Positions 46,846-64,000 of a DNA stretch of 64,000 nt are shown here, piece by piece (position 1 is the stretch's first letter; each line of letters starts with the position of its first letter). The DNA comes from an uncultured Gemmatimonadota bacterium (lineage in GTDB: Bacteria; JAAXHH01): positions 576,001 through 640,000 of the forward strand of contig OX638340.1 in NCBI GenBank assembly GCA_951812955.1. The letters are read 5' to 3'. The translations under genes and the position numbers were made by a program. The notes under the pieces are model-generated. The model was not told where the DNA came from and ran no database searches. It saw only the letters and a list, made by a program, of their open reading frames with translations.

Positions 46846-46867
46846 AGATCCCTTACCAGCCAGGTGT

Positions 46868-47182
46868 TCAGTAGTCGATGCCAAGTTCAAGCTTGGCGTC
46901 TTCGGTCATCATGTCGATATGCCAGGTCGGTTCCCAGACGATCTCGATCAGCGCGTCCGAGACCTGTTCCAGGTCCTTCACCTTGGTCTCCACCTCGGCG
47001 GGGAGCGACTGGGCCGCCGGACAGTTCGGCGAGGTGAGCGTCATCTTGATGTTCGTCATACCGTCCTGTTGCACGTCGATCTCGTAGATCAGTCCCATTT
47101 CGTAGATGTTGACCGGGATCTCGGGATCGTAACACGACTTCAATACGTCCACGATCTGCTCTTTAACGGCATCCGTATCCAT
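46868..47182 (-). CDS. sufT: SUF-system Fe-S assembly protein, DUF59/SufT type
   Basis: 'CYDPEIPVNIYEMGLIY', 'MTLTSPNCPAA'. Sits between sufD and sufS. Confidence 0.8.
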   Translation of the reverse strand: MDTDAVKEQIVDVLKSCYDPEIPVNIYEMGLIYEIDVQQDGMTNIKMTLTSPNCPAAQSLPAEVETKVKDLEQVSDALIEIVWEPTWHIDMMTEDAKLELGIDY

Positions 47183-47213
47183 CCATAGACTCCTGTAAGC
47201 GTGAATGCGCCGG

Positions 47214-48584
47214 TTATCTTCCCGCCTTGTCCCTGGCCAACGAAAGATCCCGGATCGTGGTCTCGAAAAGCGTATCCAGCGAGGACCTGACCGCGTCGAT
47301 CCTGAGACGCCGTATCAGGTCCGCCGCAAACCCGTAGGTGAGTAGACTGCATGCGCTGTCGTGTGACAGACCGCGGGTTCGCAGGTAGAAAATCTGGTCT
47401 TCGTCGAGCTGGCCCACGGTGGCGCCATGGGTGCATTTCACCTGGTCCGCGTAGATTTCGAGCTGCGGCTTGGTGTGTATCATCGCATCGGGCGACAGCA
47501 TCAGATTCTTGTTCAGTTGCTTGGCATCCGTTTCCTGGGCGTCCTGGTGGACGAACACTTTGCCGTTGAATACTCCGCGCGACCGGCCTTCAAGGATGCC
47601 CTTGTAAACCTCGTAGCTATCGCAGTTGGGTACGGCATGATCAATCGCGGTGTGATTGTCCACATGCTGATTTCCCGTAACCAGGAACAGTCCGTTCATG
47701 CGAACCACCGCGTGCTCGCCGTCAAGTCGGGCATTGGTGTCGTTGCGGGTCAACGCGCCGCCCATGCACATGTTGAAGGTTGAGATCCGGCCGTTCCCTT
47801 CCAGGTGCAGTTGTGTGGTGGAAAGGTGCGCGGCTCCGGCGCCTTCCCGGTTGATCCGGTAGTGATCCACGTTGCCGTCCCGGCCCACGGCGATCTCAGT
47901 CACCGCGTTGGTCAGGTAAGCCTGTTCGGTGAGCCCGGTATAGCTTTCGACCACTTTGAGGCTCGCGCCGTCGCCCGCCGCGATGAGCGTACGCGGCTGC
48001 GTGGCCAATGGCGTATCATGACCGGCGGTGACGTAGTGGACGTGCACGGGCGTTTCAAGGTGCCCGCCACGGGGTACATAAACGAACAGCCCATTCTCGA
48101 AGAGTGCCGAGTTCAAGGCCGTCAGGCCGGTTCGTTCAAACTCGGCATATCGTGCAAGGTGAGGACGAACCAACTCCGGGTGTTCGACCAGCGCTTCGGC
48201 AAGGGTGCTCACCACGGCGCCACCGGGCAGGCCGTCTACACGCGACAACGCGGGCGAGAACACACCGTTCACAAAAACCAGCCGGTGCCAGTCGTCCTGA
48301 CCGAATTCGTAAGGCGCAAGCGCGGCCTCATCGAGTCGAGCTTCTACCGGCCCTGCGTGATAGGATGTTTCCGCGATGCCTCGAAGATCGGTGTATACCC
48401 AGTCTTCCCTGAGCGGGAAGGCAATCTCACGTGCGACCGGCATCCCCAGTTCCCTGAAGTGCGCCATGGCATCCGAGCGAAGCCGGTGCAGCCACAACGG
48501 CGCGTCCTGGGACAGGACACGGTCGAAAGCATCATAGAACGTGGTGTAACGAGCCGTCTCTGCCTGTTTTATTGCTTCTGTCAT
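47214..48584 (-). CDS. sufD: Fe-S cluster assembly protein SufD
   Basis: C-terminal beta-helix region 'KPQLEIYADQVKCTHGATVGQLDEDQIFYLRTRG'. ATG 48584 sits just after the sufC stop. Confidence 0.85.
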   Translation of the reverse strand: MTEAIKQAETARYTTFYDAFDRVLSQDAPLWLHRLRSDAMAHFRELGMPVAREIAFPLREDWVYTDLRGIAETSYHAGPVEARLDEAALAPYEFGQDDWHRLVFVNGVFSPALSRVDGLPGGAVVSTLAEALVEHPELVRPHLARYAEFERTGLTALNSALFENGLFVYVPRGGHLETPVHVHYVTAGHDTPLATQPRTLIAAGDGASLKVVESYTGLTEQAYLTNAVTEIAVGRDGNVDHYRINREGAGAAHLSTTQLHLEGNGRISTFNMCMGGALTRNDTNARLDGEHAVVRMNGLFLVTGNQHVDNHTAIDHAVPNCDSYEVYKGILEGRSRGVFNGKVFVHQDAQETDAKQLNKNLMLSPDAMIHTKPQLEIYADQVKCTHGATVGQLDEDQIFYLRTRGLSHDSACSLLTYGFAADLIRRLRIDAVRSSLDTLFETTIRDLSLARDKAGR

Positions 48585-48612
48585 TTCGTGTTCCCGTTCT
48601 CCCTGTGATCGC

Positions 48613-49377
48613 TTAACCGGCTGCTTCCACTTCCTCCCGAATCCACTCGTAACCTCGTTCTTCCAGCTGGAGAGCGAGGTCTTTTTCACCAGACTTGACG
48701 ATCCGGCCCTCGTACATGACGTGCACGTAGTCCGGCACCACGTAATCCAGCAGTCGCTGGTAGTGGGTGATGACGATCATCGCATTGTCGGCTGATCGCT
48801 GCTGGTTGATCCCGCGCGCCACGATCCGCATGGCATCGATGTCCAGGCCGGAATCGGTCTCGTCCAGTATGGACAGAGTCGGCTCGAGCACGGCCATGTG
48901 GAAGATCTCGTTGCGTTTCTTCTCGCCGCCGGAGAAGTCCTCGTTCACCGGCCGCCTCGCCAGATCGGGGTCCATGTCGACCTGCTTCATCTTTTCGTTC
49001 ATCAACCGGCGGAACGCACCAGCGCTCATCTCCGACTCGCCCCGGTACTTCAGGCGCTCGTTCAGCGCGGCCCGCAGGAAGTAGGCATTGCTTACGCCGG
49101 GAATCTCGACGGGATACTGAAAGGCCAGGAACATGCCCTCGTTAGCCCGCTCCTCGGGTGTCAGCTCGAAGAGGTCCTTGCCATGGAACCGTACCGTGCC
49201 ACCGGTCTCCGCGTATTCCTCGTGGCCGGCCAGGATTTTGCCCAGGGTACTTTTGCCGGATCCGTTGGGACCCATGATCGCGTGCACCTCGCCCCGGTTG
49301 ACCGTCAGGTCGATCCCGTTTATGATGTCCAGGTCCTTGATGCCGCCGCGCAGATTTCTGATTTCCAGTAATGCCAT
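48613..49377 (-). CDS. sufC: Fe-S cluster assembly ATPase SufC
   Basis: Walker A 'GPNGSGKST'. Signature 'FSGGEKKRNEI'. Walker B 'ILDETDSGLD'. Confidence 0.95.
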   Translation of the reverse strand: MALLEIRNLRGGIKDLDIINGIDLTVNRGEVHAIMGPNGSGKSTLGKILAGHEEYAETGGTVRFHGKDLFELTPEERANEGMFLAFQYPVEIPGVSNAYFLRAALNERLKYRGESEMSAGAFRRLMNEKMKQVDMDPDLARRPVNEDFSGGEKKRNEIFHMAVLEPTLSILDETDSGLDIDAMRIVARGINQQRSADNAMIVITHYQRLLDYVVPDYVHVMYEGRIVKSGEKDLALQLEERGYEWIREEVEAAG

Positions 49378-49434
49378 GTTACGTTCCGTCTCCCGTTAAT
49401 GTATTGAACAGATTCCCGACTGCCGTCCGCTCCG

Positions 49435-50868
49435 TTAGCCTACGCTGCCTTCCAAGCTGATCCCCAGCAGCTTCTTCGCCTCCACGGCGAATTCCATGGG
49501 CAGTTCCTGAAACACTTCCTTGCAGAACCCGTTGATAATCATGGAAATGGCGTCTTCCGTGGATATGCCCCGGGTCTTGCAGTAGAATAACTGGTCTTCG
49601 CTGATCCGCGCCGTAGACGCTTCGTGTTCCACGCTCGCGGTGTTATTGCCCACGTCGATATAGGGGAAGGTGTGGGCACCGCAGCGGTCGCCGATGAGCA
49701 TCGAATCGCACTGGGTATAGTTCTTGGCTCCATCGGCCTTCTTCAGTACCTGGATCCGGCCCCGGTATACGTTCTGGCCGTTTCCGGCGGATATCCCTTT
49801 CGATACCACCGTGCTGCGCGTGTCCTTTCCCACGTGGATCATCTTGGTTCCCGTATCGGCCACCTGCTTGTTGCGGGTCAGCGCCACGGAATAGAACTCG
49901 CCGATCGAATGGTCGCCCTGCAGGATCACGCTGGGGTACTTCCAGGTGATGGCGGACCCCGTTTCCACCTGCGTCCAGGAGATCTTGGCGTTGTCCCCCT
50001 TGCAGATTCCGCGCTTGGTCACGAAGTTGTATACGCCGCCCTTTCCCTCTTCATTGCCGGGATACCAGTTCTGCACCGTGGAGTACTTGATCTGGGCGTC
50101 CTTCAGCGCAACCAGTTCCACGACGGCCGCGTGCAGTTGATTCTCGTCGCGCATCGGCGCGGTACAACCCTCGAGGTAGCTGACGTAGGAGCCCTCGTCG
50201 GCAATGATCAGCGTACGCTCGAATTGTCCCGTTCCGGCCGTGTTGATCCGGAAATAGGTGGACAGTTCCATGGGACACCGTACGCCGGGAGGGATGTAGC
50301 AGAAGGAACCGTCGCTGAAGACGGCCGAGTTCAGCGATGCAAAGTAGTTGTCCCTGTAGGGCACCACGGTACCCAGGTACTTCTCCACCAGGTCGGGATG
50401 TTCCTGCGCCGCTTCCGAGAAGGAACAGAAGATGATGCCCAGTTCTGCCAGCTTGTCCTTGAAGGTCGTGTGGACCGACACGCTGTCGAAAACCGCGTCC
50501 ACGGCCACGCCCGCTAGCATCTTCTGTTCCTCCAGCGGTATACCGAGCTTGTTGTAGGTTTCCAGCAGCTCGGGATCCACCTCGTCAAGGCTGTTGAATT
50601 CCGGCGTGTTCTTCGGCGCGGCGTAATAGACGATGTTCTGGTAATCGACCGGCGGATAGGCCATGTACTGCCAGTTGGGCTCCTTCATCTTGAGCCAGTG
50701 GCGATACGCCTTCAGACGCCATTCCAGCAGGAACCCGGGCTCATTCTTCTTTGCGGATATGAACCGGACTATATCCTCGTTGAGTCCCGGCGGCGCCGTT
50801 TCCATCTCGATATCGGTAACCCAGCCTTCTTTGTATTCCTGTTGGGCCAGGGTCTCAATGGCTTCCAT
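49435..50868 (-). CDS. sufB: Fe-S cluster assembly scaffold SufB
   Basis: Highly conserved SufB sequence, e.g. '[10 protein letters not shown]', '[18 protein letters not shown]', '[21 protein letters not shown]'. Confidence 0.95.
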
Positions 50869-50901
50869 TTTCTCTCCTTGAAACGAATGTAACCCGCCGC
50901 G

Positions 50902-51420
50902 CTAGCGGCCTATCTTGATCGTACTGCCCATCGCCTGGTCCCGCGAGGTATCCTGGGAGACCTGCTCCACCACCTCGAGTACCTGGAATTCCGTCTGCAG
51001 CAGGTCCGACAGGGATATGTGATCGAGCACACCGGACAGGTACCGGGCCAGCACCGTCCAGACGGGACGGATGGCGCATGCGTTCAGGTGCGTGCACGCT
51101 TCCAGGTGACCGGAGAAATGTTCGCACATGTGGCTGTCCGGGCTGGTGAGCACAACCCCGTCTTCCGAACTCAGGGCGCGCATGACTTCGCCCAGCGAAA
51201 TGGTGTGCGGTTCCTTCTCCAGTGCGTAGCCACCCCTGATACCCCTTACGCTTCGTACAAGACCTGACCGCCTGAGGATCATCAGCAGTTTCGAGACGTA
51301 GTCCAGGGAAATGCCTTCCGATTCTGCGATTTGACGGCCCGTGACCGGGTCACGGGAATGGTGCCGTGCCAGCTGCAGAATGCAACGAAGGCCATATTCT
51401 TCCTGGGCGGTCACTTTCAT
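50902..51420 (-). CDS. Rrf2 family transcriptional regulator (IscR/SufR-like), first gene of the suf operon
   Basis: wHTH 'EEYGLRCILQLARH...ISLDYVSKLLMILRRSGLVRSVRGIRGGY'. Cys residues 'MCEHFSGHLEACTHLNAC' are candidate cluster ligands. Confidence 0.85.
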   Translation of the reverse strand: MKVTAQEEYGLRCILQLARHHSRDPVTGRQIAESEGISLDYVSKLLMILRRSGLVRSVRGIRGGYALEKEPHTISLGEVMRALSSEDGVVLTSPDSHMCEHFSGHLEACTHLNACAIRPVWTVLARYLSGVLDHISLSDLLQTEFQVLEVVEQVSQDTSRDQAMGSTIKIGR

Positions 51421-51675: not shown

Positions 51676-52758
51676 ATGCCCAAGAAACTGGATGTACGCA
51701 TGATACCCGGCACCCGTTCCGTCGACGCGCTGACTGGCGAAGGCTATTTCCCTGTCATCACCTGTCTGGGTGGCAATGAACTGCTCCTGGCCTACCGGGC
51801 CGGCGCAGCGCACATGGGCCTGGGCGGCCGGCTGGACGTGAGACGGTCGGTCGACGGGGGCCTTAACTGGACTGCGCCTGTGACCGTGGCCGACAGCGAA
51901 AGGGACGACCGTAACCCCGCGCTGGGTCTGGCGCCGGACGGTACGCTTGTACTGGCCTATCACTGGCAGGGGTCCTACGATGACGAAGGCGCATGGAAAC
52001 TGGAATTGGGCAGGGCCGATACTCGGGTCGTATTCTCCGAGGATGGCGGCCATACCTGGACCGGTGACGAGCTCATCGATTTCACTCCGATCAACGGCGC
52101 CTCGCCCTTCGGCAAGATCTTCACGGTAGACGGCGTCATGCACATGCTGATCTATGGCGGTTCGCCCTGCTGCGAGGCCGGATCTGGAACGGTCAGGGTC
52201 GGGCCGGCTTCGACGCCGACGTACATCCTCAGATCCAGGGACAACGGGCGATCCTGGGGGGATCCCACGCTGGTCGCACTGGGACTCAACGAATCGGACG
52301 CAGCCATCCTACCCGACGGCCGCTGGCTCTTCGTCGCCCGTTCCGAGGACCGCGCCGAACAGGCGCTTTATGCCTGCGTTTCTGAGGACGGCGGGTACAC
52401 ATGGCGCAACGTGGGACGGGTCACGGACGCAAAGGAACATCCGCCGGACATCACCCTGATGTCCAACGGATGGCTGCTGCTGCTCTTCGGGCGACGGCAT
52501 CCTCCCTTCGGCGTGGAGGGCCTGATCAGCCGGGACGGCGGGATGACCTGGGATGATCGAAGACTGGTTCTGGACGACTCCCTGCCCGGCGGCGACATCG
52601 GTTATCCCTCCACTGCCCGCCTCGAAGACGGTCGTCTGGTTACCGCCTATTACACCGCGGGAACAGCGGAGAGAAAGTGGGAGATGTTCCGTGCCGCAGA
52701 CGTAGCATGCAAGGTCGTGTCTTACGACGAGTCCAGCCTTATTGATCACTGGAGCTAA
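51676..52758 (+). CDS. BNR/Asp-box repeat (sialidase-fold) protein, no signal peptide
   Basis: Five Asp-boxes: 'SVDGGLNW', 'SEDGGHTW', 'SRDNGRSW', 'SEDGGYTW', 'SRDGGMTW'. Confidence 0.75.
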   Translation: MPKKLDVRMIPGTRSVDALTGEGYFPVITCLGGNELLLAYRAGAAHMGLGGRLDVRRSVDGGLNWTAPVTVADSERDDRNPALGLAPDGTLVLAYHWQGSYDDEGAWKLELGRADTRVVFSEDGGHTWTGDELIDFTPINGASPFGKIFTVDGVMHMLIYGGSPCCEAGSGTVRVGPASTPTYILRSRDNGRSWGDPTLVALGLNESDAAILPDGRWLFVARSEDRAEQALYACVSEDGGYTWRNVGRVTDAKEHPPDITLMSNGWLLLLFGRRHPPFGVEGLISRDGGMTWDDRRLVLDDSLPGGDIGYPSTARLEDGRLVTAYYTAGTAERKWEMFRAADVACKVVSYDESSLIDHWS

Positions 52759-52806
52759 ATATCGTAATGCGCTGTCCAAGAGCAGGTTACGTATCAGGAA
52801 CCTTGT

Positions 52807-53937
52807 GTGAGACTCGTTGATTCCGGTGAAATCCGCGACGGCCGTGCCATCCCGGATCACCGCAGGAACTGCGCCTTCACCACCATCAACAGGCTGAACG
52901 ACGGCACGATCCTCGTTTCAGGCCGGTGGGGAACGGCGCGGGATTCGGTGGACGGGCACGCCTGCATCTGGGCCACGTCGGACACCGGCCGTACCTGGCG
53001 CCTTCGATATGACGGAAACGGGAAGGGGACTTGGGACGGAACAGCGGGTGAAGTCAAGGGACTGACGAGTACGGAGCTGTCCCCAGGCACGCTCACGGCG
53101 ACGGCCCTGTGGGTCGACCGTTCCAATCCGGATCTTCCTTTCATCCATCCGGAAACGCAGGGCCTGCTGCCCATGCGCATCATGCACGTCGACTCGGGGG
53201 ACGGTGGCCGCACATGGGGTCCGCCGCGCCGAATGGACACAACGCCCCACCTCGCCGCTTCCCCCTGTTCACACCATATCATCCGGTTGTCCGGCGGTAC
53301 CCTTGTCCAGCCCTACGAACAGTGGAAGGAATACGGGGACACGTCGCCGGGCCGGCCCGCCGCGAGGCTGCGGTTATCACGGGACGGTGGGCGTAGCTGG
53401 CCGGATTTCGTCACCGTGGCCCGGCATCCGGACAACAAGCTCGCCTACTGGGACCAGCGGCTGGCTGTCCATCCCGTTGACGGCCGCCTGGCCGCCACCT
53501 TCTGGACCCACGATTTCGATGCGGGCGTCGACATCGACATCCATATCGCCTACGGGTCGCCGGACGGCCGTGCGTGGACGATCCCCCGCGGCACCGGACT
53601 TCCCGGCCAGCACTGCCAGCCCCTCGCCCTTGGTGGGGATCGCCTGCTGGCCGCTTATCCGCGACGCGGGGATCCTCCCGGCATCGTGCTTTCCATCAGC
53701 GAGGATTTCGGCGAAAGCTGGGACCGGAGCCGGGATCTCCTAGTCTACGACAGCATCGCCGGCAATGAGTCCGGATCCCGCGGCAGCCGTACGCAGTCCG
53801 AATTGTGGGGTGACATGGAGCGCTGGCGCTTCGGACATCCCCGGATGGTGCGATTGCCGGACGACGAGGTGTTCGTCGTCTACTACGCGGGAGATGATGC
53901 CGTCAAGACCGCGCGGTGGGCGAGGGTCCGCGTTTAG
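52807..53937 (+). CDS. BNR/Asp-box repeat (sialidase-fold) protein, no signal peptide
   Basis: Asp-boxes 'SDTGRTW', 'SGDGGRTW', 'SRDGGRSW', 'SPDGRAW', 'SEDFGESW'. GTG start with AGGAA 6 nt upstream. Confidence 0.7.
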   Translation: MRLVDSGEIRDGRAIPDHRRNCAFTTINRLNDGTILVSGRWGTARDSVDGHACIWATSDTGRTWRLRYDGNGKGTWDGTAGEVKGLTSTELSPGTLTATALWVDRSNPDLPFIHPETQGLLPMRIMHVDSGDGGRTWGPPRRMDTTPHLAASPCSHHIIRLSGGTLVQPYEQWKEYGDTSPGRPAARLRLSRDGGRSWPDFVTVARHPDNKLAYWDQRLAVHPVDGRLAATFWTHDFDAGVDIDIHIAYGSPDGRAWTIPRGTGLPGQHCQPLALGGDRLLAAYPRRGDPPGIVLSISEDFGESWDRSRDLLVYDSIAGNESGSRGSRTQSELWGDMERWRFGHPRMVRLPDDEVFVVYYAGDDAVKTARWARVRV

Positions 53938-54072
53938 CCCGGCTTCGACACTGTCTGCAGGGCAGTGCCGCTGAGGATACGGTCCGACGATCAGTGCAGC
54001 GCCTGGGGTGAACGACTCTGGCTCAGCCTCGCACATCCCGCCAGAGCCGCGCTTGCGGCGTTCGATCCGGGC

Positions 54073-55263
54073 TCAGCCCCTCACATCCCGCCAGGGACGA
54101 ACCATAATCCGCTCGAAACCTGCCGGATCGATGTCCACGCCGAGTCCCGGGCCCGGTGGTACCGCCACGCAGCCGTCCTCATCCAACACAAAAGGCTCGG
54201 CGAAATAACCCTTGCCGATGAACGTCCGCCCATCCTCGCGCCAGCAATTCACTTCATTGTGTTCCTGGACCAGGAAGTTCGACGCGCAGGCGTCGATCTG
54301 AATGGATGCGGCGAGGGCCAGCGGGCTTAAGGGGCAGTGCAGGGCGAGTTTCGCATAGGCGCTTTCACCCATCACCGCGATCTTGTGACACTCGGTGATG
54401 CCGCCGGCGTGGCACAGGTCCGGCTGCATCACGGACAGGGCGTTCTTGCGCAGGGCGTCGTAGAAGATCCACTTGCCCATCCAACGTTCGCCGGCTGCGA
54501 TAGGGATTTCGCTGTTGCGCGCGATGTCCGCGAGCACGTCGACCCGTTCCACGGGCATGGGTTCCTCGATGAACAGGGGCCGGTGCGGCGTCAGGGCCGA
54601 TATCATCTGTTTGGCCATCACGGGGTGTGGATTATGGATATCCACGGCCACTTCCACATCGGGCCCGGCGCCCCTGCGCACGGCGGCGAAGGCTTCGGCG
54701 ATCCGCTCCACCTCCGAGGTGGGTTCCAGTCCGGTGCCCATGCCCACGTGCAGCTTCATGCACCGGAAGCCCCACTCCTCGACAATGACCCTGGCCGCCT
54801 CCTCATGCGCCCCGGGAAAATCCACGTCCGGGTCATACGAAGGATGATAACCCGCGTCGTAGGGCTGCCCGGGTTCCACGTACCAGGGCAGTTGTCCCCC
54901 CACAGCGCGGTACATGCGTATCCGGTCGCGGCAGGCTCCGCCAAGCATGGCATGGACCGGAAGCCCTGCGGCTTTGCCGGCAAGGTCCCAGAGCGCCATG
55001 TCGATTCCGCTGATCGCGCTCATCTTCACCGGTCCGCCGACATATCCCGAACCGCCCTCGTACATGGTATGCCAGAGCGACTCGACGCGGCAGGGGTCTT
55101 TCCCGACAAGCAACGGCTCCAGGCGCCGCACCTCGGCGATGACGCTTTCCGGGTGGTTTTCCAGGTAGGGTTCGCCCCAGCCGAACAGTTCGGTGTCCGT
55201 GTGGATCTTCAGCCATACCCAACTCGGCGGAACGCGCAGGATTTCGAAGTGAGTGATTCGCAT
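54073..55263 (-). CDS. enolase-superfamily (mandelate racemase/muconate lactonizing) sugar-acid dehydratase, galactonate-dehydratase-like
   Basis: N-terminus 'MRITHFEILRVPPSWVWLKIHTDTELFGWGEP' parallels the DgoD pattern. Metal ligands in 'VAVDIHN', 'LFIEEP', 'AAGERW'. 'QPDLCHAGG'. Confidence 0.8.
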   Translation of the reverse strand: MRITHFEILRVPPSWVWLKIHTDTELFGWGEPYLENHPESVIAEVRRLEPLLVGKDPCRVESLWHTMYEGGSGYVGGPVKMSAISGIDMALWDLAGKAAGLPVHAMLGGACRDRIRMYRAVGGQLPWYVEPGQPYDAGYHPSYDPDVDFPGAHEEAARVIVEEWGFRCMKLHVGMGTGLEPTSEVERIAEAFAAVRRGAGPDVEVAVDIHNPHPVMAKQMISALTPHRPLFIEEPMPVERVDVLADIARNSEIPIAAGERWMGKWIFYDALRKNALSVMQPDLCHAGGITECHKIAVMGESAYAKLALHCPLSPLALAASIQIDACASNFLVQEHNEVNCWREDGRTFIGKGYFAEPFVLDEDGCVAVPPGPGLGVDIDPAGFERIMVRPWRDVRG

Positions 55264-55340
55264 GCTCGGCTTTGCTCCCTGTTCTTGATGGCATCATGTT
55301 CTGACGGTATCACAAATCGTGCAATGGCCAGGACGCCTAC

Positions 55341-56318
55341 CTATCGGCCATAGACCGTCTGGATCATCGCACGGATGTAGCCGTTCGCGTAGGCCTTGCC
55401 TGCCGGACCAGCCATTGATTGGGGGAAGCCCGGTGTGTGGTCCATGCCGAAGGGGCCGCTGTACCCGTTATCGCGGTAGGTTTCCATGGCCCGGCGCATA
55501 TCCACTTCGCCCTCGTCGATGAAAACCTCCGCGAACCTCGGCAGCCGGCCTCTGACGTTCCGGAAATGGACCAGGGCGATCTTTTTCCGGGAGGCCATCT
55601 CGGCGATGATATGGTAGACGTCCTGTGGACCCGCCAGTTCGGTCATGCAACCCTGGCAGAAGAGCATCCTGTGATATGCGCTGGGTACCGCGTCGAAAAT
55701 CCGGCGGAAATGCTCCACCGTGGAGCAGATCTGCGCGACGCCGCCCAGAGGCTCCGGTATGGGCGGGTCGTCCGGGTGGAGCGCCAGGTTTACCCCGGCC
55801 TTTTCGGCCGCCGGGACCGCGGCGCGCATGAAGGCGACCATGTTGTCCCACATCACCTCGGCCGAGACGGGCGGCTCGTGGGGCTGCGGGCGGCTCCGGT
55901 CGAATTCGGCATAATCGAAGGTACTGTACACCGCGCCGCCGCGGCCGATGTCGGAAATGGTGCGGAAGTTGCCCATGGGCTTGAAATTCCAGGCCAGGGT
56001 CGGTATCCCTGCCTTGCCCAGGCATTCGATAAGCCGGACGAAAGCGCCCAGTTCTTCGTCCCGTTCCGCCGTGGCCAGCGTGATCCCCTCCAGGACCGGC
56101 ATGAAGACGGTCTGCAGTTTCAGCCCATGGGACTCGGTCTTTTCCCGGGCCTGTTCGAAAAGCTCGGTACTGTCTTTGCCCGCACGAACGTGCCGTTCCG
56201 CTTCGACCTTCCCTCCGGTCCTCAGGTCCAGCTGGATCATGTCCACGCTGATCGCGCGATAGAAACTAAGGGTCTCGTCGTTGAAATCGGACCAGTTTAC
56301 GACATCATGCAGGTACAT
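55341..56318 (-). CDS. uxuA: mannonate dehydratase (UxuA) family protein
   Basis: 'LALHPDDPPIPEPLGGV', 'LVHFRNVRG', 'GEVDMRRAMETY', 'PFGMDHTPG' parallel E. coli UxuA 'MAVHPDDPPRPILGLP', 'THLRS', 'GDVDMYEVV', 'PMRPDHGH'. GGAGG SD. Confidence 0.7.
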   Translation of the reverse strand: MYLHDVVNWSDFNDETLSFYRAISVDMIQLDLRTGGKVEAERHVRAGKDSTELFEQAREKTESHGLKLQTVFMPVLEGITLATAERDEELGAFVRLIECLGKAGIPTLAWNFKPMGNFRTISDIGRGGAVYSTFDYAEFDRSRPQPHEPPVSAEVMWDNMVAFMRAAVPAAEKAGVNLALHPDDPPIPEPLGGVAQICSTVEHFRRIFDAVPSAYHRMLFCQGCMTELAGPQDVYHIIAEMASRKKIALVHFRNVRGRLPRFAEVFIDEGEVDMRRAMETYRDNGYSGPFGMDHTPGFPQSMAGPAGKAYANGYIRAMIQTVYGR

Positions 56319-56380
56319 CGATCGCCTCCAATGCTGGCGCTACGGGTTGGACGACTTCCGCTTCGACCTGACCTACGGGA

Positions 56381-56428
56381 TGGTGATCTGGTGATCTGGT
56401 GATCTGGTGATCTGGTGATCTGGTGATA
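56381..56428. repeat. octanucleotide tandem repeat (TGGTGATC)x5 + TGGTGATA
   Basis: Read directly. Perfect 8-bp phasing from 56381. Creates five GATC sites 8 bp apart. Lies 63-110 bp upstream of the uxuA-like start codon. Confidence 0.95.
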
Positions 56429-56534
56429 AGATAACCCCCCGGGCCAGTGCAGCAATTCGAAAATCGATCAGACACCACGTATATCCATATTGGGCTAACG
56501 CAAAGCGGAATCATGTATTATAATCGGTAGTCCG

Positions 56535-56619
56535 GCGCACCCGTAGGCATAGCGCATCCATAGGCTAAGCGCATCCGTAGACTGAGCGCATCCGTAAGCC
56601 GGCGCATCCGAATATCGCG
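56535..56619. repeat. five phased 17-bp tandem repeats, core GCGCAYCCRTARR
   Basis: 'GCGCA' recurs at 56535, 56552, 56569, 56586 and 56603, exactly 17 bp apart. Units: gcgcacccgtaggcata / gcgcatccataggctaa / gcgcatccgtagactga / gcgcatccgtaagccgg / gcgcatccgaatatcgc. Confidence 0.95.
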
Positions 56620-56687
56620 TACGGAAACACGGAGTCAATCCCATCCCATTTCAATCTCGGCAGGCAAACGACACAGGAGCCCTTCCA

Positions 56688-57413
56688 ATGGCGGAACGCA
56701 ACTTGAAACAGCGCATCGGCGCGGGAGAACAGGTCATCGGCGCTAACGTCGGCATGTCCCATACAAGGGAACAGCTTAAAAAGGTAGTAGAGTCAGGTGA
56801 GTACGACTTTCTCTGGGTAGACGGACAGCACAGCGCTTTCAGCGAAGACTCCCTGGTGGAATTCTGCGACAGGGCCGATGCGCTGGATGCCGACGTCATG
56901 TTCCGCATCAAGCACACGTTTCACAGCTACCTGGTCGGTAACCTGCTCGACCTTGGGCCCGCCGGGATCGAAGTGCCCCAGGTCGAATTGGAATCAACGG
57001 TGGATGAGGCGGTCGACTTCTTCTACTATCCTCAGCAGGGCATGCGGAGCTGGGGAGGCGGAGCGCGGCGTAAAGTGGATGAACAGGGCGGCGACCGGCT
57101 GGGCTATGCCGAGTGGTGGAACAACTACGGCGTGCTGATGATGCAGCTTGAATCGATACCCGCGGTGACAGGTGCGCGGAGACTGGCCAAAGCGGGGGTA
57201 GACTGCCTGTCCTTCGGTCCAAACGATCTCATGTACAGTATCGAGGCCCATCCGCACCATCCGTTCCGCGACGTGGACGATTGCGTTCGCCACGTGGTCG
57301 AACAGCTCGCCGGTTCCGGTACGAGGGTGTGTTTCCGGAACCACCCGGCCAGCATGCGGCAGCGGTACGTTGACATGGGTGTAACGGTGTTTCTGGAGAG
57401 TCCGTCGCTGTAG
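56688..57413 (+). CDS. HpcH/HpaI family 2-keto-3-deoxy-sugar-acid aldolase
   Basis: 'LKQRIGAGEQVIG', 'YDFLWVDGQHS', 'MFRIKH', 'GIEVPQVE', 'MMQLES', 'DCLSFGPNDL'. AGGAG SD 8 nt upstream. Confidence 0.8.
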   Translation: MAERNLKQRIGAGEQVIGANVGMSHTREQLKKVVESGEYDFLWVDGQHSAFSEDSLVEFCDRADALDADVMFRIKHTFHSYLVGNLLDLGPAGIEVPQVELESTVDEAVDFFYYPQQGMRSWGGGARRKVDEQGGDRLGYAEWWNNYGVLMMQLESIPAVTGARRLAKAGVDCLSFGPNDLMYSIEAHPHHPFRDVDDCVRHVVEQLAGSGTRVCFRNHPASMRQRYVDMGVTVFLESPSL

Positions 57414-59316: not shown

Positions 59317-59470
59317 GCCCTCGCTCTCCTATGGTCGTCGATTCTCACCAGTAGAGTACGAAATCGTACACGGACAGGGATCGTTCCGGCAGATTCCACA
59401 AAAAGGCAAAGCCCCCGGCGGCATTTACCACCGGGGGCCTGGATCTGCATACCTCTGGAGCGACCTGCGT

Positions 59471-60742
59471 CTATCCCTGCCCCGATCCGCCGAGGACGTC
59501 TTCCAACTCGTTCACGAACACCTCGAGTTCGTCCGGCTTCCCGATGGTTACCCGCAGGTGATTGCTCAGGAGATTGATCTCCCTCGTCCGGTACCCGGAA
59601 CCGCCCCGTACCATCACGCCGCGTTCCATAAGCGCGGAGCCCATGCGGCGGCTGTCCCGCTTGACGTCCACGATCATGTAATTGCCGTGGCTCGGTGTGT
59701 ATGCCAGTCCCAGACGGTCGAATTCGGCGGACAGGTAGTCCTTGCCGTCGCTCACGACCTCTTTCGTACGGGCTACGAATTCGTGATCGTCCAGGGCCGC
59801 GAGGGCCGCGTGCATGCCCAGGGTGCTCAGTCCGCCGCCGAAGAACCCCATGTGCGCCATCAGCATATCCATCATGCGCTGGCTGCCGATCGCGTACCCG
59901 ATTCGCATGCCGGCCAAGCCGTAGATCTTGGAAAAAGTACGGGCGACGACCACATTGTCTCGCTCCAGGGCGAGTTTCGCGGCATCCCGGTAGTCCGGAT
60001 CCCGGACGAAGTGGATGTAGGCCTCGTCGATGAGGACGATGGCCTGCGCTGGCGCCGCGTCTACGAGGGACACCAGGTCCTCGTAGGGCACGATCGTTCC
60101 CGTGGGATTGTTGGGATTGGTGACGACGATCAGGGATGTTCTTGGAGTGATTGCCGCCTTCATGGCGTCGAGGTCGTGAACGAAGTCAGCCGTCGTGGGA
60201 ACGCGGACGGTACTGACGTCCTTGCCCATCATCTGATAGGTTTGAAAACCACGCGCGACCGATCCATAACCCGGGACCGCCTCGATGCACTCCCCGCCAT
60301 TGCTCGCGGCTATTACGGCCAGCGCCTGTAGTATCGGACCGGAACCAGGCGTGACCATTACCCGGTTCAACTCCCTGAAACGCATGAATGACCGCATGTC
60401 GCTAAAGCTCAGTTCGAAATCCTCGACACCCGGAACGCCGTGTAATTTGTTGAGACGAACGGGCAGATCGACACCGAAATCGTACCGGTTGATCTTGTGC
60501 AGGTTTTCGGCAATGGCCGCAACGGCGCGTGGCGAAGCGCCCAGGGGATTCTCGTTGGCTCCAATCTGGACCCGGCCCGGTTCCACGCCGTATCCGCGGA
60601 CGTCGCCGGCCTTCTTACCGGTCGCCATGGCCTGCGCGATCTCCCAGGCCGAACCTGAGGCGAGGGCGCCGGCACCCAGCAGGGCGCCTTTCATGAATCG
60701 ACGCCGCGTAAACCCGTTTTTTAATACACTCCCGAAACCCAT
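59471..60742 (-). CDS. class I/II (HisC-like) pyridoxal-phosphate aminotransferase with twin-arginine (Tat) signal peptide
   Basis: ATG 60742 has GGAGG 8 nt upstream. 'MGFGSVLKNGFTRRRFMKGALLGAGALASGSA' is a Tat-type signal. 'GANENPLG', 'NPNNPTG', 'ARTFSKIYGLAGMRIGY' (PLP Lys). Confidence 0.8.
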   Translation of the reverse strand: MGFGSVLKNGFTRRRFMKGALLGAGALASGSAWEIAQAMATGKKAGDVRGYGVEPGRVQIGANENPLGASPRAVAAIAENLHKINRYDFGVDLPVRLNKLHGVPGVEDFELSFSDMRSFMRFRELNRVMVTPGSGPILQALAVIAASNGGECIEAVPGYGSVARGFQTYQMMGKDVSTVRVPTTADFVHDLDAMKAAITPRTSLIVVTNPNNPTGTIVPYEDLVSLVDAAPAQAIVLIDEAYIHFVRDPDYRDAAKLALERDNVVVARTFSKIYGLAGMRIGYAIGSQRMMDMLMAHMGFFGGGLSTLGMHAALAALDDHEFVARTKEVVSDGKDYLSAEFDRLGLAYTPSHGNYMIVDVKRDSRRMGSALMERGVMVRGGSGYRTREINLLSNHLRVTIGKPDELEVFVNELEDVLGGSGQG

Positions 60743-60903
60743 GGTATGAACCTCCATTCAATGATTACTCGTAAATTGCATCGTATCTACAAAGTGTACA
60801 CCACCTAAGAGTCTGAACCTCCAACTAAAGATTGCCTGCGGATTTCCCACCATCCAAATGTGTAACGCCTGAATTCGAAACCTTATTTCGCTACCTTATT
60901 TCG

Positions 60904-62568
60904 TTACCTGATGTTGAGCCTTGCCATTTGCGTGACGATGTAGTCGGCGCAGCGGAACGCGAGCGCCTGTATGGTTAGCGTCGGGTTGCTCTTGCCGCTG
61001 GTGACGAAGGACGAACCGTCGACGATGAACAGGTTGTCCACGTCGTGGGCCTGGTTGAACTTGTTCACGACCGACGTCGCCGGATCGTTGCCCATTCGGC
61101 AAGTGCCCATGAGATGGGCGTCGCCATGGGGCACGAAATTCGGAGAGGCCACGATCCCATGGGCGCCGGCGGTGTCCAGCAGTTCGCGTGCGCGGTCCCG
61201 AAAGAAGTCGCCGAGTTTGTGCTCGTTCGGATGCACGTTGTACGTCACACGCGGTACCGGCAGGCCCCACTTGTCGTTTACGTCCGGGTCCAGGTCGATC
61301 ATGTTGGATTCCTGGGACATGGACTGCATGCTGGTAAGGGCGACCATGTACCGGGTGTAATTGTCCATGATCCATTTCTTGCGGCGGGCGCCCCACCTGC
61401 GGAGCCGGGGCATGTTCAGGTTGGCGAAGGAAATGGTTTCGCCGTCACCCCGCGGTTCCAGCACGCCTCCGCCGAAGAAACCGTACTTGTCCGGATCCGG
61501 GTCGTAGAAATCCTGGATAATGCGTGAATCCATGACGCCTTTGTACTCGTTGAGATCCTTTTCGTAGAATCCCCGGGCGGACTGGTAGTAGTTGAACATC
61601 AGGTGCCTTCCCACCTTGCCGCTGCTGTTGGCGAGGCCGTCCGGAAAGAGATTGGACTTCGACATGAGCAGCAGGCGCGGCGTATGGACGCCGTTACAGC
61701 AAACGATTACCGCGCGGGCTTCCAACCGGTGTTCACGCAGGTCTTTATCCAGATAGATCACTCCCTCGGCCCGGCCATCCTCGTCGACCACGATCTCCCG
61801 AACGCAGGCATCGGCCCGTATCTGGCAGTTGCCCGTCCTCAGCGCCTGGGGAATCATGGTAACCAGCATGCTGGACCGCGCGCCGATGGTACAGACGTAA
61901 CTTTCGCAGAAACCGCAATTCATGACCGGCGGCCGGCCTCCGTATTCCCGCGAGTTGATTGCCAGCGGCGCCGGATACGAGTGCCATCCCAGCTTCTGGG
62001 CGGCCATGTCTGCCAGGGCGCCCGAACTGGTTCGCGGCACCGGCGGCATGGGGTAGGGACGGCGTCGCGGCGGATCGAAGGGATTGGCGCCCGCCAGGCC
62101 GGATATCCCGACTTCGTATTCGGCCTTCTCGTAGTAATGTTCCAGGTCCCAGTAGTCGATGGGCCAGTCCTGCACGTCCGCGCCGTCCAGGTCGCCGAAA
62201 AGGCTTCTTTCCTTGAAATCGTTCTCGTGCAGCCGCCAGGAAATACCGGTGTAATGGAGCGTGCTGCCGCCCACCGTGCTTTGCATGTGAATCCCGTGAT
62301 CTTCAACGGCCTGATCGTCCGACGACTGCCGGTACGTATTGGGCTGATCGTGGCGATAGATGTTGGGATGGTCATGGTTATTGCTGGCGGGATGCATCGC
62401 CTGGAGTTCGTCCTGGTCGAAGTGGCGCGTCTTTTGAAATGATCCCATTTCCATGGCGACCACCTGCAGGCCCTTCGTGCTCAGTTCCTTGGCCATGACC
62501 GCGCCGGCGGCGCCTGTGCCGATGACGATGACGTCCGGTCGTCGAATCGTGGGATTGGGCAGGGACAT
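60904..62568 (-). CDS. GMC family FAD-dependent oxidoreductase (catalytic subunit; no signal peptide of its own)
   Basis: '[18 protein letters not shown]' FAD fold. C-terminal 'HLMGTCRMG...[22 protein letters not shown]'. Start lies 13 nt after the subunit-3 stop. Confidence 0.85.
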
Positions 62569-62581
62569 GGGGACTCCGAAA

Positions 62582-63262
62582 CTACGCTTCGCCGACGATT
62601 CTACTCTTCATCGGACCGTCATATGGCTTCCATTCGGGGTATTCGATCTCCGGAATGGTCATGTCGAATTCACTGAAAGGGGGATCGTAGCCAAAAGCCG
62701 CGCGACCTGGAAATCGGATCAGCTTCCATCCGGTCTCGCGATAGTTTCCGCCATAGGAGGGATCACTGAACATGCCCTCCATGGTATGCGTGACCAGCAT
62801 GCGCAGGAAATCCCTGGCGCCCATGGGGGCGTCGTCCGGCCAGTTCCGCGGGGACCTTGCACGGTCGATACCCATCAGGGCCCTGCGCTGATTTCTTGTA
62901 TCGAGATCCAGGAAGCCGGCTTCGTGCGAGAGCTGACAGTACCGGTCGAAAGCGGCCAGGCCGGAGACATAGGACTCCTTGTATTCGGCCCGGTGGCTGC
63001 CGAGGGCCCGGTCGATGTATACGATCACGCGGGCTTCCGCCGCACCGGGGTCGTTGTCGTCGGACGGCATGATCATCCGGGTCAGCGCGTCCACGGTACG
63101 GCCCTGGCGGGCGTCCAGGTTCTGCCAGGTGTATTCGAAGGGAGGTGTTTCCTGGGCGTCGATCGCACCGGTACGGGACAGCACGCCAAGTGTTATCACT
63201 CCACCGGTCGCCCGTGCGGTATTGGAAAGAAACGATCGGCGGGAAAACGGCTTTGACGTCAT
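62582..63262 (-). CDS. gluconate 2-dehydrogenase subunit 3 family protein (Tat-signal small subunit)
   Basis: ATG 63262 gives 'MTSKPFSRRSFLSNTARATGGVITLGVLS' (a Tat motif, SRRSFL). Size and position upstream of the GMC gene fit the family. Confidence 0.7.
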   Translation of the reverse strand: MTSKPFSRRSFLSNTARATGGVITLGVLSRTGAIDAQETPPFEYTWQNLDARQGRTVDALTRMIMPSDDNDPGAAEARVIVYIDRALGSHRAEYKESYVSGLAAFDRYCQLSHEAGFLDLDTRNQRRALMGIDRARSPRNWPDDAPMGARDFLRMLVTHTMEGMFSDPSYGGNYRETGWKLIRFPGRAAFGYDPPFSEFDMTIPEIEYPEWKPYDGPMKSRIVGEA

Positions 63263-63424
63263 GGATTCCAGGCTCCCGACTCTATAGTTTCCATCGTTCG
63301 AATGCACATCAGGACTGTATACACATATCGCGTTGATTTATTCAATCTATCCGCTTCGAAAATACGGTTGAAAACCGGGTTGACAATAGAATTCGGCAGG
63401 GTTCTGATCGCGCGGGCAAAGAGG

Positions 63425-63460: not shown

Positions 63461-64000
63461 ATGAACATTCTGAAGCCGCAGGCCCTCAAACCAGGTGATA
63501 CAATCGGGATCGTCGCACCGGCCAGCCATTCCGCGCTCCCGAGCGCGCTGCTGAACGGCCGCCGTTCACTCGAAGCCCTCGGATTCCACACGGTGACCGC
63601 ACCGCACCTGGCGGACAGGCACGGTTTTCTGGCCGGCCGGGACGCCGACCGCCTGGCCGACCTGGAAGGCATGTTCACCGATCCAGATATCCATGGAATC
63701 GTTTGCCTTCGCGGCGGATACGGGTCCGTCCGCATGCTGCAGCGCATGGATTTCGATATCGTCCGCACCAACCCCAAGGTCTTCGTCGGATACAGCGACA
63801 TAACCGCCCTCCATGGGGCAATCCATCAACGTACCGGCCTGGTCACCTTTTGGGGTCCCATGGTTGCCTCGGATATGAGTCCGGGTTTCCACCCATACAA
63901 CCGGGATGCCTTCATGAAGGCGGTTACAGGAGCCGATTCCATAGGCAGCATCGTGCATCCCGAGGACATGCCTCCCGTGCAGACCATTCATGGCGGCATG
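63461..64000 (+). CDS. ldcA: LD-carboxypeptidase (peptidase S66), N-terminal part; 3' end outside window
   Basis: Absent from the ORF track because no stop lies in the window. My translation: 'MNILKPQALKPGDTIGIVAPAS...RLADLEGMFTDPDIHGIVCLRGGYGSVRML...VFVGYSDITALH' (catalytic Ser in GYSDIT). Confidence 0.8.
   Translation, partial: MNILKPQALKPGDTIGIVAPASHSALPSALLNGRRSLEALGFHTVTAPHLADRHGFLAGRDADRLADLEGMFTDPDIHGIVCLRGGYGSVRMLQRMDFDIVRTNPKVFVGYSDITALHGAIHQRTGLVTFWGPMVASDMSPGFHPYNRDAFMKAVTGADSIGSIVHPEDMPPVQTIHGGM

Follow-up and report, generated by a model that had tools for sequence, protein, structure and literature searches.

A conserved dehydrogenase-aminotransferase gene trio with two twin-arginine signals as a candidate periplasmic oxidation-transamination module

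Transamination is regarded as cytoplasmic chemistry, and to our knowledge PtaA is the only characterised periplasmic transaminase. PtaA takes part in pyoverdine tailoring in fluorescent pseudomonads, where it is exported through the Tat (twin-arginine translocation) pathway already folded with its pyridoxal phosphate (PLP) cofactor, and acts as a 'normal' PLP transaminase on an alpha-amino acid moiety in the periplasm (PMC6206403). The finding was described as surprising, and how PLP is regenerated from pyridoxamine phosphate (PMP) is unknown (PMC6206403), as is the origin of PtaA's keto acceptor. Here we analyse a 64,000 nt stretch of DNA from an uncultured Gemmatimonadota bacterium (GenBank assembly GCA_951812955.1, contig OX638340.1, positions 576,001 to 640,000), hereafter the window, in which a PtaA-like aminotransferase gene with a predicted Tat signal lies downstream of the genes for a GMC-family dehydrogenase and its small, Tat-bearing subunit.

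The window aminotransferase resembles PtaA in that both are PLP transaminases of HisC-like type whose N-terminus bears a twin-arginine signal. PtaA has not been reported to be paired with a dehydrogenase, whereas the window enzyme has a candidate partner, a possible source of the keto acceptor. The annotated part of the window showed no pyoverdine genes. The initial annotation of this DNA, which proposed a periplasmic pairing of oxidation with transamination, was not aware of a characterised periplasmic example. PtaA is already a Tat-exported periplasmic PLP transaminase (PMC6206403). Given this precedent, and since the window protein matches the model of PtaA at 3.9e-50, the aminotransferase's export is by itself no novelty.

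The dehydrogenase half of the locus is best compared with the hitch-hiker family, in which a catalytic subunit carrying flavin adenine dinucleotide (FAD) and a 3Fe-4S cluster is accompanied by a small subunit needed for Tat secretion and by a tri-haem cytochrome c (PMC9727119). The likeness to FAD-dependent glucose dehydrogenase (FAD-GDH), fructose dehydrogenase (FDH), and the gluconate 2- and 2-ketogluconate dehydrogenases lies in full-length homology of the GMC subunit and a Cys cluster at the 3Fe-4S position. It extends to the arrangement of the genes, with a catalytic subunit lacking a signal peptide and a Tat-bearing PF13618 subunit encoded immediately upstream (PMC9727119). The FAD-GDH and FDH complexes have a tri-haem cytochrome c subunit, whereas the window operon has an aminotransferase in third position instead.

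Conversion of a hydroxyl group into an amine by two successive enzymes is known from cytoplasmic pathways. NeoQ/NeoB-type aminoglycoside steps follow an oxidase-then-aminotransferase logic, and the kanosamine-type NtdC/NtdA route uses an NAD-dependent GFO-type dehydrogenase and a DegT-type aminotransferase on cytoplasmic sugar phosphates. The likeness of NtdC/NtdA to our locus is that of a dehydrogenase followed by a PLP aminotransferase acting on a sugar, but neither of its enzyme families matches the window proteins. In pseudouridimycin biosynthesis, the cytoplasmic flavin oxidase SapB and the PLP aminotransferase SapH, which is related to 7,8-diaminopelargonate synthase, turn a hydroxyl into an amine (PMC10127198). 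The proposed two-step logic, C-OH to C=O to C-NH2, is the same. However, systems of the SapB/SapH type combine cytoplasmic, single-subunit, O2-using oxidases with an aminotransferase of another subclass (class III for SapH), whereas the window encodes two Tat substrates, a dehydrogenase of respiratory Fe-S type and a class I/II aminotransferase.

Judged by sequence, every component of the locus thus belongs to, or is closely related to, a known kind. The novelty lies in the combination: a two-subunit hitch-hiker dehydrogenase that lacks a cytochrome is joined by a PtaA-like exported transaminase, placed where a sister clade has cytochrome c, and we found no description of such a pairing. Literature searches on 3-dehydrogenases of glycosides or glucosides that have a Tat small subunit, and on any pairing of a GMC enzyme with a periplasmic aminotransferase, gave nothing relevant.

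The locus comprises four genes, all head to tail on the window's minus strand between 57.5 and 63.3 kb, in the order small subunit, GMC subunit, aminotransferase and ABC exporter (Table 1). The first three are read as one operon because no terminator separates the GMC and aminotransferase genes and a strong one follows the aminotransferase. In the GMC-aminotransferase spacer, terminator-like and promoter-like sites were sought and none was found, and the hairpin beyond the aminotransferase is likely to mark the 3' end of the three-gene operon.

Table 1. Positions in the window of the genes and putative signals at the locus
Feature	Coordinates	Strand	Basis
Candidate sigma-70-like promoter, TTGTCA-16-TATTTT	63359..63386	-	about 97 nt 5' of small-subunit start; consensus scan only
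Small 'hitch-hiker' subunit, 226 aa, Gluconate_2-dh3 family	62582..63262	-	PF13618 at 4e-26
GMC-family FAD dehydrogenase catalytic subunit, 554 aa	60904..62568	-	PF00732 + PF05199
GMC-aminotransferase spacer, 161 nt	60743..60903	-	gene coordinates
HisC/PtaA-like class I/II PLP aminotransferase, 423 aa, predicted Tat signal TRRRFMKGALLGAGALASGSA	59471..60742	-	PF00155 at 1.3e-47
Intrinsic-terminator-like hairpin	59409..59440	-	14-pair stem (10 G-C), T-rich tail; 30 nt past aminotransferase stop
ABC exporter, PF00664 + PF00005	57487-59316	-	MsbA-like models top-scoring yet below their cut-offs

The initial annotation had the MsbA-like ABC exporter following the aminotransferase. The gene is indeed present, but its membership in the unit did not hold up, and we rejected it as part of the system: the terminator-like hairpin stands in between, and the exporter is confined to the window's own lineage. 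At the related locus L176, an HpcH aldolase gene directly follows the aminotransferase and there is no ABC exporter. The promoter call at the other end of the operon is weak, since the count of sigma-70-like sites in the consensus scan was not above the expectation from shuffled sequence. The candidate site falls in the divergent intergenic region that the small-subunit gene shares with an S66 peptidase gene on the plus strand.

Both ends of the putative module carry a Tat leader. The small subunit starts at an ATG at 63262 behind a GGGAG Shine-Dalgarno sequence, with the N-terminus MTSKPFSRRSFLS; this start is backed by the L001 gene call and by orthologues, the list of open reading frames (ORFs) having placed a GTG start at 63307. 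Its Tat signal, MTSKPFSRRSFLSNTARATGGVITLGVLSRTGAIDAQE, contains the motif S-R-R-S-F-L-S, as originally proposed (SRRSFL). SRRxFL is kept in the small subunits of L086, L089, L091, L092 and L176, and either SRRxFL or TRRRFL was present in all six of the other small subunits inspected. No solved structure gave a detectable sequence match to the small subunit.

The GMC gene begins at an ATG exactly 13 nt after the TAG of the small subunit, behind GGAG, and its product opens almost at once with the FAD fold (GxGxxG, from residue 17), so there is no room for a signal peptide; the spacing and the missing signal were both read correctly at the outset. In every relative inspected the GMC subunit likewise begins directly with the FAD fold. 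The assignment to the hitch-hiker type also stands: the protein aligns over its full length with the alpha subunit of Burkholderia cepacia FAD-GDH (6a2u_B, 4e-62) and with Gluconobacter fructose dehydrogenase (7w2j_A, 6e-59), while a more distant match was to the paromomycin 6'''-oxidase 7dve (1.6e-12). A Cys triad, C-G-F-C-x4-C, occupies the position of the 3Fe-4S ligands and is invariant as C-G-F/Y-C-x4-C in 22 relatives, as is the catalytic His motif HLMGTCRMG (HL[ML]GTCRMG in the same set). Compared with FAD-GDH, two of the ligands align and the first Cys is displaced by three residues within the same loop; the Cys that forms the inter-subunit disulfide of FAD-GDH is absent from the window GMC protein. 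Taken together, the homology and motifs support membership in the hitch-hiker dehydrogenase family, and the GMC subunit may carry a 3Fe-4S cluster.

The catalytic subunit is also exceptionally well conserved. Between the window and L176, GMC identity is 91% despite a gap of 12-13 points in G+C content (60% and 47%, respectively), against only 74 and 73% for the small subunit and the aminotransferase. The difference points to an unusually strong constraint on the catalytic subunit.

The aminotransferase gene starts at an ATG at 60742, with GGAGG 8 nt upstream, and runs to a stop at 59471; its sequence opens MGFGSVLKNGFTRRRFMKG. The initial annotation had the gene on the same strand as the GMC gene, as it is, and 146 nt downstream of it. 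That distance fits an alternative in-frame ATG at 60757, five codons earlier, whereas the ATG at 60742 lies 161 nt after the GMC stop. The discrepancy has no consequence, because the RR motif is included from either start. The N-terminus, MGFGSVLKNGFTRRRFMKGALLGAGALASGSAWEIAQAMATGKK, presents a near-perfect version of S/T-R-R-x-F-L-K (here T-R-R-R-F-M-K), then a Gly/Ala-rich hydrophobic stretch and AxA sites; by inspection, the h-region GALLGAGALASGSA is followed by candidate cleavage sites AQA and AMA.

This leader is a family trait, as judged from homologous sequences. Among the 120 best matches to the aminotransferase in a collection of 5.8 billion proteins, 118 have the RR motif at the same place within an N-terminal extension of about 45 residues that also keeps the Gly/Ala-rich hydrophobic region and the AxA site; the two exceptions are N-terminally truncated. 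It had been conceded from the start that translation might begin downstream of the RR motif, but this objection fails. At the position of the window's Met after RR, many homologues have Leu, Ile or Val and still conserve the leader, which must therefore be translated. In an exhaustive search of cluster representatives at 50% identity, about 37 of the best 150 matches had Tat-like N-termini, and exported HisC-like aminotransferases thus appear to form a recurrent and diverse group. Within the window, the pattern [ST]RRxF[LIVM] in the first 45 residues was found in only these two of 174 ORFs (at least 100 aa, six frames). These observations support both Tat leaders as genuine conserved features, beyond chance, and both enzymes are predicted to be exported to the periplasm.

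Several lines of evidence place the aminotransferase in the HisC/PtaA/aromatic type. The best NCBIfam model was PRK09105 (NF006580; 227.9 bits, 1.7e-67, cut-off 444), aligned from query residue 14, within the leader, followed by the hisC model (TIGR01141; 223 bits, 4.9e-66, cut-off 276.55). The PtaA equivalog model (NF051461) was matched over nearly its whole profile but at 170.6 bits, far under its cut-off of 500, so that the sequence is classed as a homologue and not an orthologue of PtaA. The PLP residues N209, D239, Y242, K272, R280 and R397 are invariant in 31 relatives, a set that includes the Schiff-base Lys and the C-terminal Arg that binds the substrate carboxylate. An AlphaFold (AF2) model built on 31 relatives had a mean predicted local distance difference test (pLDDT) score of 87, with nearly all of residues 1-34 below 50, as expected of a signal peptide. 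Among solved structures, the closest in sequence and in fold are aminotransferases of HisC and aromatic type (3ly1, Rv3772/4r2n, 3ffh), then CobD and AspAT. The top 50 Foldseek neighbours in the PDB were all HisC, CobD, AspAT or other class I aminotransferases, with no DegT-type sugar aminotransferase among them, and PF01041 (DegT/DnrJ/EryC1) gave no match at E <= 1e-3. Sequence and model thus agree on an enzyme of HisC/PtaA/aromatic and not of DegT/NtdA type. No his genes occur near the locus.

Synteny in relatives had been suggested as a check, and it was borne out. The order small subunit-GMC-aminotransferase was found at eight of the nine aminotransferase orthologue loci examined, spanning 51-100% aminotransferase identity and at least four flanking contexts (Table 2). 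The eight are the window (L001), L176, L177, L086, L089, the P0022 contig, L178 and L091; the ninth is L087.

Table 2. Gene content of related loci and protein identity to the window proteins (%)
Locus	Genes, in order	Small subunit	GMC	Aminotransferase
L176	small, GMC, aminotransferase	74	91	73
L177	GMC fragment (contig end), aminotransferase	not on contig	88	68
L086	small, GMC, aminotransferase	63	81	64
L089	small, GMC, aminotransferase	53	79	58
L178	small, GMC, aminotransferase	55	74	58
P0022 contig	small, GMC, aminotransferase			57
L091 (Latescibacterota metagenome-assembled genome)	small, GMC, aminotransferase	43	71	51
L087	aminotransferase alone	absent	absent	59
L092	small, GMC, cytochrome c	50	67	absent

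The G+C content of the loci ranges from 40 to 61%. The gap between the GMC and aminotransferase genes varies from 13 nt in L178 to the 161 nt of the window (13-149 nt in the relatives), and the shortest gaps suggest co-translation. The ranking of the loci by aminotransferase identity (100 to 51%) tracks that by GMC identity (100 to 71%), as expected for a unit inherited together. The flanks differ: S66 peptidase and 2-Hacid_dh genes in the window and L086, Nramp and Amidohydro_2 in L089 and the P0022 contig, and HTH_34 and DUF4153 upstream with a Tat-lipoprotein-like Amidohydro_3 downstream in L091. The S66 peptidase and 2-Hacid_dh genes were considered as partners and rejected as lineage-specific synteny, occurring with and without the GMC pair and being absent in L089 and L091.

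Two observations concern the L091 locus. The Amidohydro_3 gene there (L091:9383-11074) lies on the same strand downstream of the aminotransferase and encodes 563 aa, with an N-terminus, MAWTRRMFLKTLGTASAGATFGSLSTSLNAGC, that combines a Tat motif with a lipobox-like Cys; the product may be a third exported enzyme of the unit in that genome. A gene trio, which encodes a conserved membrane protein (about 200 aa), a regulator of the HTH_34 family and a second, large membrane protein (CreD or DUF4153), is shared by L087 (5313-7754) and L091 (2521-5175), placed upstream of the aminotransferase in the former and upstream of the small subunit in the latter. It looks as if the GMC pair had been inserted into, or deleted from, an older arrangement.

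The conserved order, the two leaders and the family assignments together indicate that this is a real, conserved and probably periplasmic dehydrogenase-transaminase module. That the three genes form one operon for a two-enzyme periplasmic conversion of hydroxyl to carbonyl to amine is a narrower claim, to which we give an even chance. In such a module, the Tat signal of the small subunit would carry the folded GMC subunit, loaded with FAD and probably with a 3Fe-4S cluster, across the membrane as a heterodimer, the route taken by the FAD-glucose, fructose and gluconate 2-dehydrogenases, while the aminotransferase would fold around PLP in the cytoplasm and leave by its own Tat signal, as PtaA does. 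The dehydrogenase would oxidise a hydroxyl of a sugar-type metabolite to a carbonyl, passing electrons to an acceptor encoded elsewhere, and the transaminase would take that carbonyl as amino acceptor, for a net change of C-OH to C=O to C-NH2. Acceptance of the carbonyl would regenerate PLP from PMP outside the cell. In a variant, the amino donor would be the 'real' substrate and the dehydrogenase would only supply the keto acceptor that recycles PMP. We regard a fully self-contained periplasmic hydroxyl-to-amine module, with the partner dehydrogenase supplying the keto acceptor that returns PMP to PLP, as a tentative proposal. Both the coupling of the two reactions and the substrate are inferred here.

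The nature of the carbonyl can be narrowed by analogy. Gluconate 2-dehydrogenase, a member of the dehydrogenase family, produces an alpha-keto acid, and the class of the aminotransferase, which takes in HisC, the aromatic aminotransferases and PtaA, acts on alpha-amino and alpha-keto acids or on histidinol-phosphate-like ketones. For these two reasons the most likely carbonyl would be a 2-keto acid, for instance a 2-keto-aldonate converted to a 2-amino-aldonate, although we hold this preference weakly. The guess fits the sugar-acid genes that flank the operon in the window's lineage (HpcH aldolase, UxuA-like, galactonate-dehydratase-like, ILVD_EDD, PfkB and 2-Hacid_dh). The conversion of a keto-sugar to an amino sugar, which was the specific reading offered originally, is no better supported than that of a 2-keto acid to a 2-amino acid, and is not favoured because the aminotransferase is of HisC/PtaA/aromatic and not of DegT/NtdA type. 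The reverse direction put forward with it, in which deamination would precede the GMC step, is improbable with a dehydrogenase of respiratory type.

Several points weigh against the coupled hydroxyl-to-amine module. The first concern its chemistry. Neither a cytochrome c nor any other electron acceptor is encoded in the 64-kb window, where no ORF of at least 100 aa contains CxxCH. The proposal leaves the source of a periplasmic amino donor unexplained. A GMC enzyme that oxidised C1 of an aldose, as FAD-GDH does, would yield a lactone, which a transaminase could not use. Because the sugar-acid neighbours are lineage-specific, family analogy is what carries the 2-keto-aldonate idea.

The remaining points concern distribution. 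L087 has the same S66-peptidase neighbourhood, with an aminotransferase orthologue in it but no GMC pair. In the nearest GMC sister clade (67% identity; L092 and L093), the aminotransferase is replaced by a tetrahaem cytochrome c, a protein of 266 aa with a Sec signal and four CxxCH motifs in third position after the GMC gene (L092:8664-9464, and likewise in L093), so the linkage of dehydrogenase and aminotransferase is not obligatory. At 13 more distant loci of Tat-type aminotransferases there was no GMC gene and no recurrent neighbour; when 71 neighbouring ORFs from these loci were compared with Pfam, no family appeared more than twice, and no general theme emerged. All cluster-bearing loci that could be named came from Latescibacterota or 'candidate division' genomes, and common ancestry may account for some of the synteny. 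So far, the unit has been seen only in uncultured bacteria that are Latescibacterota-like.

Other searches bear on the same distribution. A Terriglobales GMC pair at 52% identity adjoins neither an aminotransferase nor a cytochrome c. A scan of genome contigs with the family alignment gave no close orthologue (best 41%) among the matches listed, which were mostly generic HisC patterns, and none of 80 loci among those matches had a GMC or small-subunit gene nearby. A scan of metagenome contigs with an alignment of the N-terminal region returned generic NENPLG matches, with no further orthologue or GMC neighbour among the matches listed. The sequencing run ERR13319542 holds a protein of the sister-clade GMC locus as well as a lone aminotransferase orthologue (L088), and proteins of both L087 and L092 occur in this run; these two contigs each have a G+C fraction of 0.52 and a tetranucleotide correlation of 0.71. 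It is suggestive only, but one organism may carry the aminotransferase and a cytochrome-type GMC locus unlinked.

Among the competing explanations, the one that survives best keeps the coupling and changes the substrate: the GMC protein would be a glycoside or pyranose 3-dehydrogenase-type enzyme, or similar, making a ring keto-sugar from which the aminotransferase would form a periplasmic amino sugar. Some chemical plausibility comes from HisC, which aminates the ketone imidazole-acetol phosphate and not a 2-keto acid, and the same conserved-operon evidence applies to it as to the 2-keto acid reading. The GMC family moreover works on sugars and polyols (PMC9727119). Set against this, the aminotransferase lacks meaningful similarity to sugar aminotransferases, with no PF01041 match and with 50 of 50 structural neighbours in other classes, and the GMC protein is equally distant from C1- and C5-oxidising enzymes, so that its regiospecificity cannot be read from the sequence. 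We consider a ring keto-sugar substrate unlikely, though well worth keeping in mind.

A somewhat less probable account dispenses with coupling altogether, making the aminotransferase a general periplasmic transaminase with an unrelated substrate of its own that happens to lie downstream of a dehydrogenase in one group of genomes. Its lone occurrence in L087, the pairing of the L092 GMC genes with a cytochrome c and not an aminotransferase, the 161-nt spacer of the window, the heterogeneous neighbours of the wider Tat-aminotransferase family, and the second Tat-aminotransferase of the window's lineage, 45% identical and in an unrelated context, are all as this account would have it. It has more difficulty with a gene order kept at eight of nine loci while flanks, G+C content (40-61%) and identity (to 51%) diverge, with spacers short enough to suggest co-translation, and with a terminator-like site placed after the aminotransferase and not before it.

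The second Tat-type HisC-like aminotransferase just mentioned is encoded without a GMC gene at L002:8001-9257, on a contig whose tetranucleotide usage correlates with that of the window at r = 0.97 and which also carries an 80% orthologue. It is followed by genes for an alpha/beta-hydrolase, a nitroreductase, a DHDPS-family protein and two further aminotransferases.

Improbable in our view, and more so than independent action, is a scheme in which the two enzymes work in parallel, the dehydrogenase on a hydroxy form and the transaminase, by deamination, on an amino form, to feed one keto product that is then imported and catabolised. The operon is conserved, as this scheme would have it, and the flanks in the window's lineage encode enzymes of cytoplasmic sugar-acid catabolism, including 2-Hacid_dh and PfkB, that could take up a 2-keto-aldonate; PtaA, too, operates in the deaminating direction (PMC6206403). 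However, a periplasmic amino acceptor would still be required, and at L089, at L091 and on the P0022 contig the operon is found without conserved flanking catabolic genes. Finally, an ordinary cytoplasmic histidinol-phosphate aminotransferase with an incidental RR, or one whose true start lies beyond it, is very improbable: public annotation of relatives uses that name and the hisC model does score 223 bits, but the score is under the cut-off, the leader of about 45 residues persists in 118 of 120 homologues, including those that lack a Met after RR, and GGAGG precedes the upstream ATG.

If the coupled hydroxyl-to-amine module is real, it would be the first extracytoplasmic oxidation-transamination cascade, and would provide a concrete answer to how PMP is recycled to PLP in the periplasm, namely by a dedicated partner that supplies the keto acceptor. 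The conserved operon in this way offers a testable explanation for the recycling of the cofactor in PtaA-like enzymes. It further points to uncultured, Latescibacterota-like bacteria that make or consume amino sugars, amino-aldonates or the like outside the cell. For biocatalysis, the interest is that the pair would aminate alcohols in a naturally occurring cascade that draws on the respiratory chain and not on NAD(P). Should the genes prove to be uncoupled, the finding shrinks to two ordinary Tat substrates encoded by adjacent genes.

The spacer ahead of the aminotransferase has some features of its own. It contains a 23-nt imperfect direct repeat (60744-60766 and 60811-60833; 78% identity, 67 nt apart), both copies of which are centred on GGAGGTTCA on the minus strand; the downstream copy is the Shine-Dalgarno region of the aminotransferase. 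A 7-codon mini-ORF (MQFTSNH) ends at the start of the upstream in-frame ATG at 60757. Right after the GMC stop, at 60880-60903 on the minus strand, the sequence reads CGAAATAAGGT-AG-CGAAATAAGGT, so that 11 nt are duplicated in tandem with a period of 13. A regulatory RNA in the 161-nt spacer was considered and rejected, there being no Rfam match in the region at E <= 1.

The surroundings of the operon in the window are in part specific to its lineage. Downstream of the ABC exporter, positions 51676-57413 form a sugar-acid catabolic neighbourhood peculiar to the window's lineage, with a galactonate-dehydratase-like gene of the enolase superfamily (345 bits, above the cut-off of NF010624), a UxuA-like TIM-barrel gene, an HpcH-family aldolase gene and two BNR_2 sialidase-like genes. 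On the other side, the divergent S66 peptidase gene (LD-carboxypeptidase-like; 63463-64000, plus strand) runs off the end of the window; L086 keeps it beside the locus, and so does L087, which lacks the GMC pair. Further along the minus strand, positions 45565-51420 hold a complete SUF iron-sulfur assembly cluster, comprising an Rrf2 regulator, two SufB/D-family proteins, a SufC-like ATPase and a SufS-like class-V aminotransferase.

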